Shown here: in pieces, positions 1 to 11,322 of the stretch | How the letters are laid out: each line of letters begins with the position of its first letter | How positions within the stretch are numbered: the stretch's first letter is position 1 | Source of the DNA: a virus | Lineage: Duplodnaviria; Heunggongvirae; Uroviricota; Caudoviricetes | Reading direction: 5' to 3' (one strand) | DNA: 11,595 nt | Virus record (IMG/VR): IMGVR_UViG_2579778753_000002 | Location: 1-11,595 of that record | Made by a program: the position numbers and the translations under genes | Notes under the pieces: model-generated | What the model was told of the DNA's origin: nothing | Databases searched by the model: none | Seen by the model: only the letters and a program-made list of their open reading frames with translations

Positions 1-95
1 AGTTTGCTCCTGCCATAACGTGAAGAAGCAATGACCTGGTGGTCCGTGACTTCCCTACGCTGGCATTATCCAGATCAGGTGATACGGGTATTTCT
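1..95 (-). promoter_or_regulatory. thiM: 3' portion of the thiM TPP riboswitch / thiM 5' leader (thi-box 3' helices, P1 3' strand, SD), cut off from its 5' half by the island
   Basis: Reverse complement of 1-95 reads AGAAATACCCGTATCACCTGATCTGGATAATGCCAGCGTAGGGAAGTCACGGACCACCAGGTCATTGCTTCTTCACGTTATGGCAGGAGCAAACT. I recognise this from memory as the 3' two-thirds of the E. coli thiM thi-box leader ending at the SD (GGAG at 6-9, minus). The thiM ATG would lie immediately left of position 1, outside the window. Confidence 0.85.
82..95. repeat. att core / target-site direct repeat, left copy (ATACGGGTATTTCT)
   Basis: Exact 14-bp direct repeat with 11182-11195. Each copy is joined to one half of the thiM riboswitch sequence on its outer side and to island sequence on its inner side. 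Confidence 0.8.
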
Positions 96-154: not shown

Positions 155-230
155 CCTCAAAAATGACCACACAACTGACCACACATTTCGTTGAAGCCCT
201 ACGAACAACGACGAACAATAACAAACAAAA
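155..230. repeat. Arm-type direct repeat (left), containing tandem TGACCACACA x2 and CGAACAA x2
   Basis: About 95% identical to 11031-11106 (4 differences over about 75 bp). In an excised circle the two copies would flank the core at roughly 60 and 85 bp, as integrase arm sites do in attP. Confidence 0.6.
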
Positions 231-1755: not shown

Positions 1756-2397
1756 TCAGCGACCAATCACCACAATCTGGCCGCCATCCCCTTCATCTGC
1801 TGTGCTGATCTCTTGCGAAATCACCCGCGACCCGACGCGCATTTCACCGTACAGAACAGGCACAACATTGCCCTGGGCAACCATGTTATCCAGAGAGGAG
1901 AAATAGGTGTTCTGCTTACCGTTATCCGTGGTGCTGGCTGTTGCTGTGCTGGCTTTCGGTGCCAGCATCTGTGCAACACCACCAAGTGTCATCGCCGCCC
2001 CCATTGAAAAGAGAATGTCACTGAAAGCGATACTGATTCCTGGCATCCAGATTGCCGTAGCAATCAGCGCCGCACCAAGCACCGCCTGAAACACGCCGCC
2101 ACTTTTGGCACCAGCCAGACGCGGTACGATGTGGATCACGGCACCATTTTCCAGCGGTTCATTAAGACGGGCTGATAATTCGTTTTCGCCTGTATCACGC
2201 CCGGCAATACGCACCTGATACCAACCATCGCTCAGTTTCTGACGAAACGCTGGGATCTGCATGGCCAGCGCCCGGATGGCTTCGGCCCCCGTTTTCACAT
2301 GAAGATCGATGCGGCGGCCAAATCGTTGTAAATCCCCGTAAAGGCAGATGCGTGCCATGCCCGGTGACGCCAGAGGGAGTGTGTGCGTCGCTGCCAT
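1756..2397 (-). CDS. Lambda gpI-like tail tip assembly protein, 213 aa
   Basis: ATG start with an AGAGAGG RBS. The protein (MAATHTLPLASPGMARICLYGDLQRFGRRIDL...ADEGDGGQIVVIGR) matches my recollection of lambda tail assembly protein I almost end to end, with a shorter Gly/Ala-rich central region. Recalled, not searched. Confidence 0.65.
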   Translation of the reverse strand: MAATHTLPLASPGMARICLYGDLQRFGRRIDLHVKTGAEAIRALAMQIPAFRQKLSDGWYQVRIAGRDTGENELSARLNEPLENGAVIHIVPRLAGAKSGGVFQAVLGAALIATAIWMPGISIAFSDILFSMGAAMTLGGVAQMLAPKASTATASTTDNGKQNTYFSSLDNMVAQGNVVPVLYGEMRVGSRVISQEISTADEGDGGQIVVIGR

Positions 2398-2486
2398 TTG
2401 TCGGTATACCTCTCTCGTTTGCTCAGTTGTTCAGGAATATGGTGCGGCAGCTCGCCGCCCCACGTGTTCAAAGTACCGCCTTGTTG

Positions 2487-4400
2487 TCATGCTCCATTCG
2501 ATTTCAGCAATCCACGATAATCGAGGGCCGCGACACCTGCATCTATGCGCACCTTCCAGGCGACACCATCAACAGTAAAGCCCACCTGCTCCTCAAGATA
2601 TGGCGTATCCATACCATCAAGATAAGCGACTTCTATTGTGTCCATCCCCTTAGCTGCGGCTACATACCATTCCTTGCTATTGGCCTTATCAAGACGTGGC
2701 TCAACAATTACTTCTGCCATATCTTTCACAACGTTAATGATGCCGGGGTTCTGATTGATAGTACCCTCATCACCAACCGGAAAGACTGATGACGATGACA
2801 GAATGGCGCGACGCGCGGCAGATTCCAGCGCGGCAGGGACCAGAACAAAAGCAGGGGTAATATTCAGTGAGTCGCCGTTAGCATCCTCCTGGAGGCGCAT
2901 CAGCTTACGGGCTTCATCAAGCCCCACCATGTCCATATCCTTCGCAATAAGATTTTTATGATCGGCATGGAATAACGCTTTACCATCCGTAAACTTGCCG
3001 TTGCTGGTTAACAGGAGATAAACCAGATTGCCAACTGTTCTGGCGGCTGCGCGTCCCATCGCCATGGGGATTGTAGTTAACTGGGTCAGGTCATCGTTGA
3101 TAATGGCCTGACGGGTAACGGAAAAAATATTCCCGTACGTGGCCAGCGCAATAGGTACACCTTTATCGCTGGTGGTGATGTATTTATATTCCGCACCTTC
3201 CGGTACTTTATCCAGCTTTGAAAAACCATTCAGACCAACGCGCTTTGCTTCATGAAAGTTTGAAAGCGAACCGGTACGCGTCCATTTCTGGAACGTTTCG
3301 CCGCTGTCCTGCCAGCCTTTCAGTACAGATTTTTCAGCCCCACCAGCCAGAATATGAGAAAAATCACTGCTGCTGTGTGTAAAAGCCGCATTAACAACCT
3401 GCGAGCGATTAATAAAACCACTCACAGTGATACCACGATCAACCAGTGATGCCTGGGCCATTTCAAAAAGGCTCATCATCGCGTAAGGGTTGCCTCGTTC
3501 AGGGCGTTCATACCCAAGACGGGAATAAAGCCCCTGACGAATTGCATCACCTGTTATGTTTCCGTTTCCGGCATAGATATGAGGCGGAGTATTTTTATTG
3601 GATGGCGTGGACTCGCGCCCCAGCTCGTTCAACAGCTTTTCACGGGCCATTTCCGGTGTACATGATGCATCTTCCAGACACGCCATTTTGATCCCGTCGT
3701 AACGACTGCCGAACAGGCTAAACACTTCACTTATTCCATTGATGCGCTTCTGTTCATTACCAGCAATATTTGCCGCTCCCTGTGGCGGTGTAATCATTCC
3801 TTTAATGGTTTCCGGCATATGTAAAAAATCTCCTGTGCGCTTCGATTCAATTCGCGCCATTGCTCTGACGGATGGCAACAATTCATCAGCAAAACCGTGC
3901 TTAAGGCATTCTTTCCCGTCCATCCAGGTTTCATCTTCCAGCATGGCGGTAATTTCCTGTGCTGATTTGCCCGTTTTTCTGGCATAAGCAGGGACTAACA
4001 CGGTTTCCACCTTATCCAGCAAATCAGCATAATCACGCATATCACCAGCATTTCCGCCAGAGATACCCCACGGCTTATGTATCATCATCATGGCGTTTTC
4101 CGGCATCACAACACGATCGCCAGCCATTGCGACCACCGAAGCCATTGAAGCCGCAACACCATCGATATAAACCGTAATGTCTGCCGGATGATTCCGTAGC
4201 AGGTTATAGATGGCGATGCCTTCAAACACATCACCACCTGGTGAATGGATCCTCAGATTGATATGTGAAACATCGCCAAGGGCTTTCAGGTCTTCCGCGA
4301 ACTGCTTTGCAGTAACACCGAAGCCGCCAATCTCCTCATAGATAGATATATCCGCCGCTCCGCGAACATCCGCCGCCTTAATGGTGTACCAGCGATTCAT
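2487..4400 (-). CDS. Fusion of ClpP/S14-type prohead protease (N-terminal), linker/scaffold-like segment and HK97-fold major capsid protein (C-terminal), 637 aa
   Basis: N-terminus has ClpP-like motifs (HSPGGDVFEGIAIYN, GVAASMASVVAMAGD, MMMIHKPWG). The C-terminal 350 aa or so looks like a phage major capsid protein (ITPAFVLVPAALESAARRAI..., FTVDGVAWKVRIDAGVAALDYRG). ATG start with a GGGGGAA RBS. Long ORF with no internal stops. Confidence 0.85.
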   Translation of the reverse strand: MNRWYTIKAADVRGAADISIYEEIGGFGVTAKQFAEDLKALGDVSHINLRIHSPGGDVFEGIAIYNLLRNHPADITVYIDGVAASMASVVAMAGDRVVMPENAMMMIHKPWGISGGNAGDMRDYADLLDKVETVLVPAYARKTGKSAQEITAMLEDETWMDGKECLKHGFADELLPSVRAMARIESKRTGDFLHMPETIKGMITPPQGAANIAGNEQKRINGISEVFSLFGSRYDGIKMACLEDASCTPEMAREKLLNELGRESTPSNKNTPPHIYAGNGNITGDAIRQGLYSRLGYERPERGNPYAMMSLFEMAQASLVDRGITVSGFINRSQVVNAAFTHSSSDFSHILAGGAEKSVLKGWQDSGETFQKWTRTGSLSNFHEAKRVGLNGFSKLDKVPEGAEYKYITTSDKGVPIALATYGNIFSVTRQAIINDDLTQLTTIPMAMGRAAARTVGNLVYLLLTSNGKFTDGKALFHADHKNLIAKDMDMVGLDEARKLMRLQEDANGDSLNITPAFVLVPAALESAARRAILSSSSVFPVGDEGTINQNPGIINVVKDMAEVIVEPRLDKANSKEWYVAAAKGMDTIEVAYLDGMDTPYLEEQVGFTVDGVAWKVRIDAGVAALDYRGLLKSNGA

Positions 4401-4867: not shown

Positions 4868-5090
4868 CTGTTCACCTTTTGATATTTTCTCTTTTAATTC
4901 ATAATGTTAAGGGGTGAACAGTTTCAAAAAAACTATTCACCAACTGTTCACCACTGTTCACCCTTGAAGCTCAATAAACAATCAAAAAGGTGAACAGTGA
5001 ATAGTTTGGTGAACAGTTCATAAATAACTGTTCACCCTATAATATACTGATATAAAAGATATTTATGACAGGGTGAACAGTGGTGAACAG
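4868..5090. repeat. Iteron array (at least 9 copies of GGTGAACAG / CTGTTCACC in both orientations) with an AT-rich stretch: candidate P4-type origin of replication
   Basis: Direct copies at 4913, 4989, 5009, 5072, 5082. Inverted copies at 4868, 4944, 4954, 5029. Degenerate copies at 4933 and 4997. AT-rich 5041-5069. Sits immediately 3' of the alpha-like gene. The motif contains TGTTCACC, which I recall as the P4 alpha-binding type I iteron. Confidence 0.75.
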
Positions 5091-5103
5091 TTATTCCATA
5101 AGT

Positions 5104-6921
5104 TTAATTTTTGCTATCGTCATTAGTGACCGATACACATGATGGCATCCAGTCTTCTGATTCCTCCGTCAGTGTCACGTTTGAACGCAAACCGTGCTTC
5201 GTTTTCCGTTTCATATACTCCCTGCCATATTCCGCCATTGCCCCCGGCATATCTTTACCGAAGCGCGTCAGTGTTACAGGTTTACCAAACCCATGTGCCC
5301 TCATATAAGCCAGATAGGCATGATAGAGATACCTGCGTGGGCTGAATGGCACAATTTCAGCATTACCCACTAACAGGCCATCACACATTACCGACGCCAT
5401 GAGATAGCCGCAGAAGTCCACCAGCGAATCCCCCTCTCGCTTTATCGCCAGTGCTTCTTCTGATTTCTGCTGCTCATATAACAGGCGTCTGGCTTCGTCC
5501 TGGTCAGCAAACCGTGTAAGCAGATGGCGAATCACTACCGCCAGCTCACCTTCTATTTTTTCCGCCAGCATTGGATCACGTTCGTTCTCCGGTACAACTT
5601 CCGAAAAATTGAATATCACCCGACGACGTGAGATCCCCCCGCTGCGGTCACTGAATGACATGGCGTTATTGTTAACCGCCAGCACTACTGCCGGAATACG
5701 CGTTGAGTAGGGGGCTTTGTGTTTCGGGTCAATTGCCACCTTGTCACCGCCTGTAATAGCCTTAATCCCTGCCCCATCACCAGCGTAGCGGGTCATATCC
5801 GGCATGATAATCAGCGAAAAGCCAACCACTAACGCGCGTTCCCTTGCATCTTCCAGCGCCTTCATGCTTGCCGATACTGTGTTGGCCTTACCCGCCAGCA
5901 TGGTGCAAATCTCCGCCATCACGCTTTTACCACTTCCCCCTGGACCTGTTACCTCAATGAATAACTGCCAGTCGTACCGGTTCGCCAGCACCATGAATAA
6001 TGCAGCCAGTACGCGATCCGCCTTGCGGTCATTCTCAGCCACCGAACGGCGTAACCACTTCCAGAAATTCGGCGCATGTGTTGCCAGCATTTCCCCCTCT
6101 GCTGGTGGGCTGAAAGGTAATTCACTGGCAATTAACAACCAGTCGTTTTTGTTATGCTCCCGAAAATTACCTGTTCTGGTATCAAATACCCCGTTACTGA
6201 ATCCAATCAGGTTACGGGCTGTATTCCCCATTACAGGCAAACTTAACTTCATGGTATCGACCGCCGATTTAATGGCGTTCTGCGAATAGCTGATCTCCGC
6301 ATCAATGAAAATCTGCGCCATAGCTCGCTGTAATTCTTTATCCTGTACTGGCTCCCATACAACGCCGTTGTAATGGTGAACAGTGTCAGAGTCAGCATGA
6401 ATCGCCAGTTCACCGCCATAATGTGCCAGGAGAACTTCGCCGCGTTGACTTGCTCCCATCTGGTTAAGCGCCAGTGATGAAGCGTTATCGTCTTTTACCC
6501 GCTCTTTTTTCTTTACAGGCAGTTCAACTACCTTTTTCTTTTCCTCCAGCTCTGCCCGTTCACGTTCCAGATATTCGCGCCAGTTCTCCCGTTTCTGGCT
6601 GTGCATTCCTTCAGGGTAATAATCAGCATCCCTGACACCTGCCGCTGCCAGTTTCTGCCCGATGGTATTAACAAGCCCCGGACGCAATAACCCCGCCTGA
6701 TAGAGACGCACGCGATAGCGTCCGTCCGGTACGATTTGCAGGTTGTCCAGTTCGGCAAGTTGTTGCTCTCCAAGCCAGACAGGAGGCACGTTATCGCCAG
6801 CCAGTCGCCCGTCCTGTTCCTGCCACTGCTTCGCATGTGCCCACGCATTACTACCCGCAAAAATGATGACTTCCGTCATTTTGTCACGCGGCTGGTGTTT
6901 TAAATTTGGCGCTTTTTTCAT
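5104..6921 (-). CDS. P4 alpha-like replication protein (D5_N-type domain plus SF3 helicase with Walker A GPGGSGKS; phage/plasmid primase P4-family C-terminal region)
   Basis: About 605 aa from the ATG at 6921 (GGAG RBS); the ORF track extends to a GTG at 6936. Walker A VTGPGGSGKS, Walker B-like LVVGFSLIIMPD. Adjacent to the iteron array. Confidence 0.85.
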   Translation of the reverse strand: MKKAPNLKHQPRDKMTEVIIFAGSNAWAHAKQWQEQDGRLAGDNVPPVWLGEQQLAELDNLQIVPDGRYRVRLYQAGLLRPGLVNTIGQKLAAAGVRDADYYPEGMHSQKRENWREYLERERAELEEKKKVVELPVKKKERVKDDNASSLALNQMGASQRGEVLLAHYGGELAIHADSDTVHHYNGVVWEPVQDKELQRAMAQIFIDAEISYSQNAIKSAVDTMKLSLPVMGNTARNLIGFSNGVFDTRTGNFREHNKNDWLLIASELPFSPPAEGEMLATHAPNFWKWLRRSVAENDRKADRVLAALFMVLANRYDWQLFIEVTGPGGSGKSVMAEICTMLAGKANTVSASMKALEDARERALVVGFSLIIMPDMTRYAGDGAGIKAITGGDKVAIDPKHKAPYSTRIPAVVLAVNNNAMSFSDRSGGISRRRVIFNFSEVVPENERDPMLAEKIEGELAVVIRHLLTRFADQDEARRLLYEQQKSEEALAIKREGDSLVDFCGYLMASVMCDGLLVGNAEIVPFSPRRYLYHAYLAYMRAHGFGKPVTLTRFGKDMPGAMAEYGREYMKRKTKHGLRSNVTLTEESEDWMPSCVSVTNDDSKN

Positions 6922-7217
6922 TTCTGCTCTCTCCACGCGGCAATCATGTTTTTCAGTTCCTGTAGTTTTTTATCAACATCCATACATGACACATGGTTAT
7001 TTCTGGAAGGCGGGATTTCCCGCCGGAATCTGCAAATAAAGATCTCCACGTTCAGCGAACTATGAAATGAATAGCCATCACGAATAAAATACACACGGTC
7101 AAACATCAGTTCTTTTACCGTTACTCTGTTACCGTTCTTATCCAGATAAATAGCGCCGGGGATAATTTTGGGGTGTGCATAACCGCTGGCAGTCAAGCCA
7201 GATATATATGTTCTCAT
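6918..7217 (-). CDS. Hypothetical protein (99 aa), translationally coupled to the alpha-like gene
   Basis: ATG start. Its TGA overlaps the ATG of the alpha-like gene (ATGA at 6918-6921). No family recognised. Confidence 0.55.
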   Translation of the reverse strand: MRTYISGLTASGYAHPKIIPGAIYLDKNGNRVTVKELMFDRVYFIRDGYSFHSSLNVEIFICRFRREIPPSRNNHVSCMDVDKKLQELKNMIAAWREQK

Positions 7218-8593: not shown

Positions 8594-8818
8594 TTACGCT
8601 GCCTTACCTGAATTAACGCGGTCACGGCTTTGCACCCAGTCCATAACTTCGGAAAGCAACCAGCCTACAGAACGCCCCCCAAGATTACGGCGAGACGGAA
8701 AGCCCCCTTTCTTCTCCAGTTCGTAGCGTGTAGTACGGCTGACGCCTGTTAACTTACGACATTCATCCTCACGAATTACGCGATCTGTTAGTGATTGAAA
8801 TTGTGTATTTTGATTCAT
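8594..8818 (-). CDS. alpA: AlpA-family prophage transcriptional regulator (74 aa)
   Basis: ATG with GAGGGTG RBS. HTH region (CRKLTGVSRTTRYELEKKGGFPSRRNLGGRSVGW) matches the AlpA/MerR-like fold found next to P4-type integrases. Confidence 0.85.
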   Translation of the reverse strand: MNQNTQFQSLTDRVIREDECRKLTGVSRTTRYELEKKGGFPSRRNLGGRSVGWLLSEVMDWVQSRDRVNSGKAA

Positions 8819-8921
8819 AAAAACACCCTCGAACGTAACCGAACAAGGGCATCTTATTTACCATAGCAGTTGGTGCAATATTGGAAAAATAAACTTTATT
8901 CTAATTTATCGTTCTCCATGA

Positions 8922-9776
8922 TTAATTTTCATTAGATAACATTTTTCTTATTTTTTCTAAAGAATCGCTGCGCATTATTTTTTCTAAGAAGGGTTTTACA
9001 GTCTGAGCAATAGCAAAGGTGTCCTTTTCACCATCAGGATACAAAGATACGGCAAGCACCCCTAATGAAATTTTTCTATCTGTAGACAACTCCCAAGATA
9101 ATAAGTCAATTAATGGGATTATCTTATAATCAATAATTTTACGTCGTATGCTCTCCCAACTTCCTGCAATTGGTTTGTCTGGCTCAACAATTGAAAGTTC
9201 ACTACGCCATTTTGGTAATAGTTTTGTAAACGCTTCAATCAACTCATCATCTCTGTTATGTAGTAAGTCAACAGAAACAAGCATATTATCTAATGTATCA
9301 GAAAGGAGATTCACTGGTTCACGCATCACAGCCCAAAACATCCCATTATCTTCTGATATTAAACTTCCAACCATCTCATTATCTATGATGATTGGTTTAT
9401 CCTTCCAATATCCTCTTTCCGCAGTCAGTTTATTAATCATTGATATATCAAACCTTGTTACAGGTTTAATTCCATCATCATAACTTAGCTCAATTAACTT
9501 CGGTTGCACTTTATGGTCATATTCTTTTTGTTTATCACAAAACCAATCGTCTTCTTTCAGCTCTCCAAATGGATCCCCGTAATTATTATGCAACGGGTAT
9601 TCAGCACCAAACATAAATCCATATTCAGGCATCTCAGAATGTTTCATCGTTAAATCATCTTGTCGCCAATATAATTGGCGAAATAGATCTTTATCCGACA
9701 AGTTTTCTAGGCAATCATATTTGCCTAAATCAAATGACTTTGGTAAATCTTTTTTACTATTTACTTTTTTCGTCAT
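8922..9776 (-). CDS. Hypothetical protein (284 aa), AT-rich cargo gene between int and alpA
   Basis: Uninterrupted 855-nt ORF. Its ATG overlaps the int TGA (ATGA at 9773-9776). Visibly more AT-rich than the flanking int and alpA. No recognisable catalytic motif. Confidence 0.75.
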   Translation of the reverse strand: MTKKVNSKKDLPKSFDLGKYDCLENLSDKDLFRQLYWRQDDLTMKHSEMPEYGFMFGAEYPLHNNYGDPFGELKEDDWFCDKQKEYDHKVQPKLIELSYDDGIKPVTRFDISMINKLTAERGYWKDKPIIIDNEMVGSLISEDNGMFWAVMREPVNLLSDTLDNMLVSVDLLHNRDDELIEAFTKLLPKWRSELSIVEPDKPIAGSWESIRRKIIDYKIIPLIDLLSWELSTDRKISLGVLAVSLYPDGEKDTFAIAQTVKPFLEKIMRSDSLEKIRKMLSNEN

Positions 9777-10993
9777 TGTATCCCTCTCAATATCACAATA
9801 TTTTCATTATATCCTGCAATCATATCAAGACGCTCAACCCATAGATTCAGTGCGTCCCGTTTCGCCTGCAAATAGCGTGAATGGTTATAGGTTTTTTGCT
9901 GACCTGGCATCTGATGCGCTGTGATGTGCTCCACGATATGCGGATCGACACCTAAATCATTCAGCATAGTTGTAAACGTGTGTCGGAAATCATGCAGCGT
10001 CCAGTGTTCCTGCTTAAGCCGCTTATGCGCATTTCGTCCATATTGCGCCACCGTGGTATCTTTTTTCAGTTCGCCGAGTAATAACCCAGTGTGTGCGTTT
10101 TGCTCCACCAGCTTCTGAATGAACGGCAAAATACCATCAGGAATAGGTCGGAATATTGTTACCTTCGTTTTGCTGTGCTCTTTTGGCACTGTCCACAACA
10201 TTTCTTTCAGATCCCATTCTTTGATCTCTGAAAGTCTGATCTCTGCCGTTCTGCACCCGAACACAATTAACAAGCGCATTAACGCACTGTAATAGGGAGC
10301 GAACACATCACCATCAATAGCGCGTAGAATTTCTTTTAGTTCGCTGTTGCTGTGCACTCTCTCGCGGATTTCTGCTCTCTTACCCACATCAGTAACGATC
10401 AAATCGTCCAGGGCGTTGCTAAACGCGTAGCGCCGCCTGCGGCAAAACTTTAGCGCCTGTTTGCATGTCTGCATGACATGGCCCGCTGCTACTGGTGCTT
10501 TTTTTCGTACGCGGTCAAAACATGCGATCCACTGCCTTGTATCACACTTATCAAGGGGAATTGCCCCAATATGGCAAATGATGTGCTTATCCATACGCTG
10601 CACCAGCTTTATGTAATCTTTGCGGTTATCCTTCGCGTATTCCTCCAGCCAGTAGTTAATCGCTTCCTTCACCGTAACGGGTTTTAGTGCTTCCTGTACT
10701 GTGGCGCACAACTCATAACGGGGGTTTTTACCCTCAGCCAGCCATGCCCGGCACAGTGTGCGTTTTTCCCTTGCGGCTTTCAGCGACAATTCAGGGTAAG
10801 CCCCCAGCTTTAACCGCTCTGCGGCAACCTCACGGCCTCCCGTTCGGTACCGGAAATACCAGGTTAATTTGCCGCCCTTTGAGTGTTTAATCTCCAGCCC
10901 GCCCCCGTCGGAGTAAAAACGCTCTTTTTCTGCCTGGACAGCCGCCAATTTTTTTAACGTCGAATCGCTCAGTTTGTTTAGTGCTTTTCCCAC
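9773..10993 (-). CDS. int: P4-family tyrosine integrase (406 aa)
   Basis: GTG start with GAGGA RBS. N-terminal arm-binding-type region (GGLEIKHSKGGKLTWYFRYR...GAYPELSLKAAREKR). C-terminal catalytic region with HDFRHTF and a downstream Tyr. Adjacent to the att site. Confidence 0.9.
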   Translation of the reverse strand: MGKALNKLSDSTLKKLAAVQAEKERFYSDGGGLEIKHSKGGKLTWYFRYRTGGREVAAERLKLGAYPELSLKAAREKRTLCRAWLAEGKNPRYELCATVQEALKPVTVKEAINYWLEEYAKDNRKDYIKLVQRMDKHIICHIGAIPLDKCDTRQWIACFDRVRKKAPVAAGHVMQTCKQALKFCRRRRYAFSNALDDLIVTDVGKRAEIRERVHSNSELKEILRAIDGDVFAPYYSALMRLLIVFGCRTAEIRLSEIKEWDLKEMLWTVPKEHSKTKVTIFRPIPDGILPFIQKLVEQNAHTGLLLGELKKDTTVAQYGRNAHKRLKQEHWTLHDFRHTFTTMLNDLGVDPHIVEHITAHQMPGQQKTYNHSRYLQAKRDALNLWVERLDMIAGYNENIVILRGIQ

Positions 10994-11030
10994 TATCAGA
11001 TCCTCTTTTCAGTCCTCCAGCCTCAAAAAA

Positions 11031-11106
11031 CTGACCACACAACTGACCACACATTTTGTTGAAGCTCTACGAACAACGACGAACAACAACAAACAATAAA
11101 ACAGGA
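11031..11106. repeat. Arm-type direct repeat (right), partner of 155-230
   Basis: Same tandem TGACCACACA and CGAACAA sub-repeats. Lies in the int upstream region, about 40 bp from the int start. Confidence 0.6.
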
Positions 11107-11181
11107 TAATTTATTGTTTATCAAATACATACATAAACAACCACAAGCAACCCCGAACCACAAAAAACACTAAATGAGAAA

Positions 11182-11195
11182 ATACGGGTATTTCT
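11182..11195. repeat. att core / target-site direct repeat, right copy
   Basis: Identical to 82-95. Confidence 0.8.
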
Positions 11196-11238
11196 CAGCC
11201 TTCACGCAGAAGGGCACCCCGAGTCGTTTGGTTGCGAT
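11182..11238 (-). promoter_or_regulatory. thiM: 5' portion of the thiM TPP riboswitch aptamer (P1 5' strand, P2, P3, CUGAGA), separated from its 3' half
   Basis: Reverse complement reads CAACCAAACGACTCGGGGTGCCCTTCTGCGTGAAGGCTGAGAAATACCCGTAT, which I recognise as the 5' half of the thiM thi-box. Confidence 0.85.
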
Positions 11239-11322
11239 GATAAATCGCAGAGGAGGATGGTAATGTCCAGCGCACGCGTTGTAAACGAGGAAAAACGGCA
11301 GTTTTACAATCGCGTTAATAAA

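Follow-up and report, generated by a model that had tools for sequence, protein, structure and literature searches.

Paired repeats just inside the ends of an EcCI224-type chromosomal island are probable arm regions of its attP

The window (the whole 11,595-nucleotide stretch of DNA that we analysed) contains an island of 11.1 kb between two 14-bp direct repeats. Just inside each end, the island carries one copy of a longer repeat; the two copies run in the same direction and match at 93–94%. We propose that these copies are probably the accessory (arm) regions of the island's attP, and that they combine candidate integrase sites, arranged as doublets, with arrays of candidate AlpA sites. The two arm modules have the same composite anatomy, their layout and spacing are conserved in relatives, and the doublets covary with the integrase.

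A repeat search of the window aligned 159–228 with 11027–11096 (direct, ungapped, 70 nt, 94% identical). BLAST aligned 155–228 with 11021–11096 (71/76 identical, two 1-nt gaps, E = 9e-28), and in a gapped alignment, fainter similarity continues to about 239 on the left and about 11112 on the right. We take the left copy (155–239, + strand) as the accessory module of the int-distal arm, or P' arm, and the right copy (11021–11112, + strand) as that of the int-proximal arm, or P arm. The initial annotation of this DNA described near-identical direct repeats with tandem sub-repeats inside both island ends, and the repeat search, BLAST, and counts of the sub-repeats all confirm this. Its description was otherwise accurate, but the right copy, given as 11031–11106, was about 10 nt out of register with the left copy. 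It also placed the right copy in the upstream region of int, which is borne out: this copy ends 28 bp from the GTG start codon of int at 10993.

Each repeat has a composite structure: a tandem pair of 12-bp units (ACTGACCACACA), then 15 bp of spacer, then three units of the ACGAACAA type that are phased at 10 bp. The sequence TGACCACACA occurs exactly four times in the whole window, at 164, 176, 11032, and 11044, or twice per repeat copy with a period of 12 bp. The doublets that contain these sequences are our proposed integrase arm-type sites. On the P' arm, the doublet is AATGACCACACA followed by ACTGACCACACA (162–185, + strand), and it is conserved and covarying in relatives. On the P arm, the doublet is ACTGACCACACA twice (11030–11053, + strand; in the sense of int, TGTGTGGTCAGT twice), and it is also a possible operator for int. 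Beyond the spacer, ACGAACAA, ACGAACAA, and ACAAACAA follow at 10-bp steps, starting at 201, 211, and 221 on the left and at 11069, 11079, and 11089 on the right. The triplet of the P' arm (ACGAACAACG, ACGAACAATA, ACAAACAA; 200–229, + strand) has analogous GAAC arrays in relatives, and we propose that its units are RDF (AlpA) sites. The distal triplet of the P arm (ACGAACAACG, ACGAACAACA, ACAAACAA; 11068–11097, + strand) was identified from the sub-repeat search and from aligned relatives.

The P arm alone has another cluster of phased GAAC-like units near the core (AAACAACCAC AAGCAACCCC GAACCACAAA; 11133–11165, + strand). Counterparts of this cluster are found in all of the aligned P arms, such as ATGAACATTA ACGAACCATG ATAAACTGCA in the group of relatives whose integrases are 55% identical to the island's (the 55% group). 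Between the two GAAC arrays of the P arm lies an IHF-like element, TATCAAATACATA (11119–11131, + strand), with one mismatch to WATCARNNNNTTR, and most aligned P arms have a WATCA(A/G) element in the same column. A palindromic IHF-like element, TTATCAGTTGATAA (108–121), lies between the core and the P' doublet; it is weak, with one mismatch per strand. None of the matches to the IHF consensus within the arms, including the one at 11119–11131, is significant on its own.

All of the island's genes are on the minus strand. int (9773–10993, − strand) encodes a tyrosine integrase with an N-terminal arm-binding domain: the protein matches PF13356 (P4-type, Arm-DNA-bind_3; 1.9e-17) over residues 8–94 and PF00589 (8e-17), and its N-domain matches solved N-domains of CP4-like integrases (PDB 3JTZ and 3JU0). 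In the AF2 model (pLDDT 82.7), the arm domain forms a four-stranded sheet with a helix. alpA (8594–8818, − strand) encodes an AlpA-family excisionase/regulator (PF05930, 4.8e-16; phrog_2790; PDB 8C3T), which is our candidate for the binder of the 10-bp-phased units. (We found no sequence match between this AlpA and the solved structure of TorI.) A D5-type primase-helicase gene is annotated at 5104–6936 (− strand), and the further genes include DUF6387, DUF4222, lambda-I-like tail assembly, and DUF1441/TerS-like genes. A fused ClpP-protease/major-capsid gene (637 aa) and the lambda tail-assembly-I-like gene lie at 1756–4400 (− strand). Portal and large terminase genes are absent from the island, so the captured phage late genes are a partial set. 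Just downstream of the primase-helicase gene, 4868–5100 contains about 10 GGTGAACAGT iterons in both orientations, with nested inverted repeats; this is probably the island's replication origin.

As expected for a phage-inducible chromosomal island (PICI) of the Gram-negative type, int, alpA, and pri are co-oriented, with the origin downstream of pri, and the island has a site-specific att along with captured late genes. From this gene content and the att sequence, the island is an EcCI224-type PICI. An entry for rcnR_thiM.EcCI224 in the supplement of PMC10111431 gives AGAAATACCCGTAT as the identity block, which is the same block as the island's, so the island and its core were already catalogued. 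A match at 98.8% identity to 93% of the window is found in the genome of E. coli strain Ecol_224.

The 14-bp att identity block, ATACGGGTATTTCT, is an exact direct repeat at 82–95 and 11182–11195. The left block forms the junction with the 3' half of the TPP aptamer upstream of thiM, and the right block forms the junction with the 5' half. The intact target site scores 71.2 bits against RF00059 and is an annotated riboswitch (L134, 1235–1331), with the core in the middle of the aptamer, where AGAAAUACCCGUAU comes right after CUGAG. The split site in the window scores only 33 bits, which is below the threshold. The two parts of the split site are at window 35–95 (− strand) and 11196–11231 (− strand). 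After insertion, thiMD has lost its promoter and keeps only the 3' half of the aptamer, and the island supplies no replacement for the 5' half. The Salmonella relatives have the same core as the island. The catalogue in PMC10111431 names the site "rcnR_thiM" and does not mention the riboswitch, and our search of the literature on PICIs plus thiM, or on riboswitches as integration sites, found nothing specific. Of the 5426 E. coli genomes, 4953 have the reconstructed empty thiM site in one piece, whereas the island is in only 76; the other genomes (about 470) may have another insert at or near the thiM site, or a divergent spacer between rcnR and thiM.

If the island is circularised, then the two repeat copies flank the core in direct orientation. 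In the resulting attP, measured from where the core block starts, the P doublet begins 150 bp before and the P' doublet begins 82 bp after, so that the doublet starts are 232 bp apart. TGACCACACA is repeated on both sides of the core and is unrelated to the core sequence, as expected for arm sites. The initial annotation suggested that, upon circularisation, the repeats would flank the 14-bp core in the way that arm-type sites of an integrase do. This geometry, the PF13356 domain of the integrase, and the conservation and covariation described below all support the suggestion.

We gathered relatives from three sources: complete E. coli genomes, contigs with genes for homologous integrases, and a scan of viral contigs with a degenerate pattern. 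(Searching genome contigs for related loci with a single integrase as the query found no relative.) Because loci were picked by their doublet pattern, using a per-position variability map of the window-type arms for the doublet would be circular, and the map was not used for this. Upstream of int, at least 60 loci, with integrases that are 53–100% identical to the island's, share one layout. Moving outward from int, the 12-bp unit comes first, as a doublet (consensus AYTRACYNCACM), and after about 15 bp of spacer there are GAAC-type units, two or three of them, spaced in 10-bp steps. Then come an AT-rich segment with WATCA(A/G), a second phased cluster of GAAC-type units, AAAAACAC, and, last, the core. 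The same layout is kept across relatives whose integrases are 40–100% identical. The int-proximal end of the doublet is 24–38 bp from the start of int (38 bp in the window) for integrases that are 55–100% identical. Over the same range of integrase identities, the doublet starts exactly 147 bp before AAAATACGG in 30 of the 30 loci that have that core motif.

Wherever both ends of the element were available, which gave 16 arm pairs including the window's, the other end has a second, co-oriented doublet and phased GAAC units. (The copy at the end of contig L044 was too short to compare, and the Salmonella contigs L001–L003 stop inside the island, which puts their P' arms outside the comparison.) As reconstructed, the doublets of the two arms are 232–234 bp apart in attP. 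In L044, L057, and L094, which are metagenomic or viral contigs of relatives, the attP junction is intact and the doublets are spaced by 232–234 bp. Comparison with the attP regions of related islands had been put forward in the initial annotation as a check on its reading, and both the layout and the spacing turned out to be kept.

The 21-nt doublet is 90–100% identical between the arms of every element. Over the 41 nt outside the doublet, the identity between arms is 93–98% in the window and L004, 78% in L090 (whose integrase is 98.8% identical), 49–63% in the 67% integrase group, and 34–41% in the 55% group. Only the sub-sites and their positions are kept in distant relatives, so the long near-identical repeat points to homogenisation of the arms within one lineage. 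Near-identity over the whole 75 bp would not, then, be a requirement of the mechanism. The initial annotation considered the repeats to be unusually long for arm sites. The near-identity is indeed peculiar to this lineage, but the length is explained by the presence of two arrays, the 12-bp doublet and the 10-bp-phased triplet.

Among 5426 complete E. coli genomes, 76 carry an 80-bp version of the repeat, in 154 places, all of them chromosomal and with two or more in every genome; int, counted from 90% DNA identity upward, is likewise found in 76 complete E. coli genomes. In at least one genome, the 80-bp repeat occurs four times, which suggests either two such islands in its chromosome or a tandem array of them. 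Where islands share int but differ in cargo (L004, which is of the capsid-forming type, and L090), they have window positions 1–310/355 in common and then diverge. Conversely, in islands with the same cargo but other integrases, the match with the window starts only at 311–330. Since the segment at 96–310/355 goes with int across different cargos, the left repeat, which lies within it, is part of the integration module and not of the cargo.

These results also bear on whether the repeats have a role in integration at all. The 93–98% identity over 75 bp within the lineage looks recent, as if from a functionless duplication, and the initial annotation noted that a tandem duplication found only in this strain would undermine its reading. 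Dispersed repeats or MITEs, replication iterons, or a packaging site could also be considered. However, a strain-specific tandem duplication or a dispersed repeat is ruled out by the presence of at least two copies in each of the 76 genomes, and the copies are always paired and are at the ends of the island only. The sub-sites and their spacing are kept in relatives whose integrases are 40–100% identical, and the island's iterons have a different sequence. Furthermore, the module is inherited with int rather than with packaging genes, and a search of the phage collection with the reconstructed attP gave no match. We consider this family of explanations to be highly improbable.

The sequence of the doublet varies among relatives. 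Its 9-mer is TGACCACAC in the window and close relatives, TGACCTCAC in two Salmonella relatives, TAACTACAC in the 59–67% groups, either TGACTACAC (A-type) or TGACTGCAC (G-type) in the 55% group, and TGTATTGC (in the sense of int) in helper-embedded PICIs (HE-PICIs). L009 and L010 (int at 10001–11218 and 9951–11168), whose integrases are 64% identical to the island's, lie beside lysis/late genes of Stx prophages, which is a helper-embedded-like position; their doublet is TAACTGCAC/TAACTACAC and not the published TGTATTGC motif. The two 9-mers are identical in 15 of 26 distinct doublets, as compared to a mean of 2.6 and a maximum of 9 in shuffles. In 15 of the 16 arm pairs, the two arms agree in unit type. 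The exception is L024 (IMGVR_UViG_3300011481_000018), with doublets at 366 and 11163: TGACTACAC is on the int-proximal arm and TGACTGCAC is on the other. L024 may be a recombinant island, or its integrase may tolerate either base there.

Within the 55% subgroup, which has 17 unique integrases, just 3 of 407 integrase columns split the TGACTACAC elements from the TGACTGCAC elements. Two of the three are residue 55 (S/T versus E) and residue 58 (P versus S). In the AlphaFold model, both residues are in the hairpin loop of the arm domain (50–58), between the strands at 43–49 and 59–66. No column of AlpA splits the A-type from the G-type elements in this subgroup. L078 and L094 have near-identical AlpA proteins but different doublets, and in L044 and L126, whose AlpA proteins are 92% and 79% identical to the window's, the doublet is that of their own integrase group. 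Elements that share a host species also differ in doublet type, which speaks against a host factor as the binder. The sequence of the doublet thus seems to follow two residues in the hairpin loop of the integrase's arm domain, and not AlpA. Because it tracks the arm domain in this way, we assign the doublets, as putative sites, to the arm domain of the integrase, with four units for four protomers. The loci that covary are linked: their covariation is inflated by linkage and by common ancestry, and it is partly confounded by phylogeny. The mixed arms of L024 also count against our assignment, as the variable position in the doublet is perhaps tolerated rather than read.

We also considered that the whole module, including the doublet, might be an operator at which AlpA or another regulator controls int and late transcription, with no binding by the integrase. 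The P copy is directly upstream of int, and PMC10111431 leaves AlpA as a possible binder of a similarly doubled motif. However, this seems inconsistent with the different doublets of L078 and L094, with the way that the doublets of L044 and L126 stay with the integrase type, and with the splitting of doublet types by two residues of the arm domain and by no column of AlpA. Furthermore, an operator at a promoter needs no second copy about 11 kb away, which in attP lies at a fixed 232–234 bp. It is quite unlikely, we think, that the module is only an operator. The initial annotation had raised an AlpA/Xis-type site as an alternative for the entire repeat; this is still plausible for the 10-bp-phased array, but the doublet appears to covary with the arm domain of the integrase instead.

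Turning to the phased arrays, the pattern RAACMA occurs 8 times on one strand of the 437-bp attP, where 0.55 occurrences are expected. The GAAC core is unchanged from 40% to 100% integrase identity, in elements from E. coli, Salmonella, Cronobacter, and other hosts. Provisionally, and with lower confidence than for the doublets, we propose that the GAAC arrays are candidate AlpA sites. RDF sites are typically direct repeats one helical turn apart (PMC7498355), and TorI sites contain GTTCG (the complement of CGAAC), with three in a block, and overlap the intS promoter (PMC2951348). The island's arrays are also direct repeats one helical turn apart within an att arm, with three units per arm, and the island has alpA. 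L044 and L126, with AlpA similar to the window's, have CGAACAA units, while the rest of their integrase group, with a different type of AlpA, has GGAACAA. But the type of AlpA is weakly linked to the base that precedes GAAC (C, G, or T), and the link breaks down in the 55% group.

Could the arrays be extra arm sites for the integrase, or sites for a conserved host factor such as a response regulator of the OmpR/PhoB type? A GAAC core that is constant across the elements of many hosts would fit any conserved binder, and strands of the integrase's N-domain (TWYF.YR and KLG) are conserved as well. Also, the RDF sites of lambda, P2, 186, and KplE1 are on one arm only, while the island's distal arrays are on both arms, and only the cluster at 11133–11165 is specific to one arm. 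This is atypical for RDF sites and counts against our assignment of the arrays to AlpA. Against another binder are the one-turn spacing of the direct repeats, which is the usual RDF pattern, the recognition by TorI of GTTCG in a block of three sites, and the CGAACAA units that accompany window-like AlpA in L044 and L126. On balance, we consider it unlikely that the arrays are bound by something other than AlpA.

Two CGAAC units, 10 bp apart, are also found upstream of alpA, at 8830–8846. These are in the loop of a covarying hairpin and are inverted (GTTCG) in relatives, so they are not clean support for binding by AlpA. The hairpin and a T-run (8819–8853) come directly before the start codon of alpA, and the stem has compensatory changes among relatives (CCCTCG/CGAGGG, TCCTCG/CGAGGA, GCTCTCG/CGAGAGC, GCTCCCG/CGGGAGC, and GCTCCTG/CAGGAGC). 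The structure resembles a conserved terminator or attenuator ahead of the master regulator.

In our preferred explanation, the four 12-bp units of each attP (TGTGTGGTCAGT twice per arm, in the sense of int) would serve as binding sites for the arm domains of four integrase protomers. The integrase would bridge the arms and the core, with the DNA bent at the AT-rich, IHF-like segments, to form the intasome. Protomers of the AlpA-family RDF would bind cooperatively to the GAAC triplets, including the core-side third triplet that only the P arm has, and would thereby determine directionality. Because the P module is so close upstream of int (28–60 bp before its start), its occupancy should regulate int too, as in KplE1 and P4. 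We infer which protein binds which array, as well as the regulatory role, from these comparisons. A promoter scan found no sigma-70 consensus promoter between the core and int, only a promoter-like site on the thiM side, so the role of the P module as an operator is a conjecture. That site (TTTACA-17-TACCAT; window 11257–11285, − strand) is chromosomal and is the sole sigma-70-like promoter upstream of int; after insertion, it points into int by way of the aptamer's 5' half and the P arm. The island's genes are co-oriented with thiMD, so read-through either way is conceivable.

A bolder variant, which we find doubtful, is that directionality in this clade works differently than in lambda, P2, or KplE1. 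The two identical doublets, 22 helical turns apart, would clamp four integrase arm domains, and AlpA or the integrase would polymerise like a filament on the three phased GAAC arrays, with nine sites over both arms. What sets the switch between excision and integration, as well as the expression of int, would then be how both arms are occupied and not how one arm is bent. Gene conversion between the modules, which are 232 bp apart in the circle, would maintain the identity of the arms in the thiM lineage.

Our preferred explanation has precedents in better-known systems. The attP of lambda has arm sites P1, P2, and P'1–3, Xis sites X1, X1.5, and X2, and IHF sites H1, H2, and H'. As proposed here, lambda combines a heterobivalent integrase, arm sites that are unlike the core sites, phased tandem RDF sites, and AT-rich bend sites between arm and core. 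The attP is also of similar size, at about 300 bp here and about 240 bp in lambda. But lambda has five dispersed arm sites and has Xis sites on the P arm only, whereas the island has 2 + 2 units and phased arrays on both arms. IntS of ICEMlSymR7A is a P4-family integrase, like the island's. According to PMC11963761, this integrase uses a 283-bp attP with five P/arm-type motifs (TGKTGGTATC), all of which are needed for integration; attP-bound IntS represses intS, and a wHTH RDF binds within attP. The arm motifs differ from the island's in that they are not symmetrical doublets, and a consensus RdfS site was not found (PMC11963761).

In the attP sites of P2 and 186, the type of arm unit (tgTGGaCa versus tgccGCCActt) goes with residues in the N-terminal domain of Int, and TGTGGACA of P2 resembles the island's TGTGGTCA (PMC3448106). 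However, the integrases of P2 and 186 lack PF13356, and their RDF sites (for Cox and Apl) are on one arm only. In KplE1 (CPS-53), the att arm at attL extends, as in the island, over the region upstream of the integrase gene; int of KplE1 is repressed by Int as well as by the RDF (PMC2951348). The RDF sites of KplE1 contain GTTCG and form blocks of two sites and of three, the latter being 2 nt apart (PMC2951348). KplE1 differs in that the arm sites of IntS carry TAAA motifs rather than a 12-bp doublet, and in that all of the TorI sites are on one arm.

The closest likeness is to the doubled attP motif of HE-PICIs, tgTGTATTGCantgTGTATTGCa, which occurs as two co-oriented copies, 81 and 132 bp from the centre of attP (PMC10111431, 2023). 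That study called the doubled motif unique to HE-PICIs and listed integrase arm domains, AlpA, or an unknown protein as its possible binders. The island shares the tandem doubling with a 12-bp period in the sense of the integrase, and the two co-oriented copies per attP (PMC10111431). The int-distal copy is about 76–86 bp from the centre in the island, as compared to 81 bp in HE-PICIs, and the int-proximal copy is about 136–146 bp away, as compared to 132 bp; taken to the nearest edges, the island's two distances are about 76 and 136 bp. Among the HE-PICIs that we retrieved, the integrases are 40–45% identical to the island's, and the motif starts 29–42 bp upstream of the start of int. The units of both have the prefix GTGT, and both have GTTCG-N5-GTTCG units further upstream. 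The core of the unit differs, with TGTGGTCA (in the sense of int) in the island and TGTATTGC in HE-PICIs, and so does the target, which is the thiM riboswitch for the island and a late gene of a prophage for HE-PICIs. The island's repeats are the same doubled-motif architecture with a different unit sequence, and the doubled motif is a general feature of this clade of integrases, wider than HE-PICIs.

Arm sites that flank a core are textbook biology, and our finding, while real, is largely ordinary. What it adds is modest: the doubled architecture extends beyond HE-PICIs, and the computational evidence points to the arm domain of the integrase as the binder of the doublet. This bears on what binds the doubled motif of HE-PICIs, as the sequence of the doublet would follow the hairpin loop of the arm domain rather than AlpA. 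It also provides a sequence-level map of the attP of an EcCI224-type satellite, with the core, four proposed arm sites, three phased arrays, and bend sites, and a putative specificity code that relates residues 55 and 58 of the integrase to position 6 of the unit. If integrases from this clade become tools, then the map may be of use in defining minimal attP sites.
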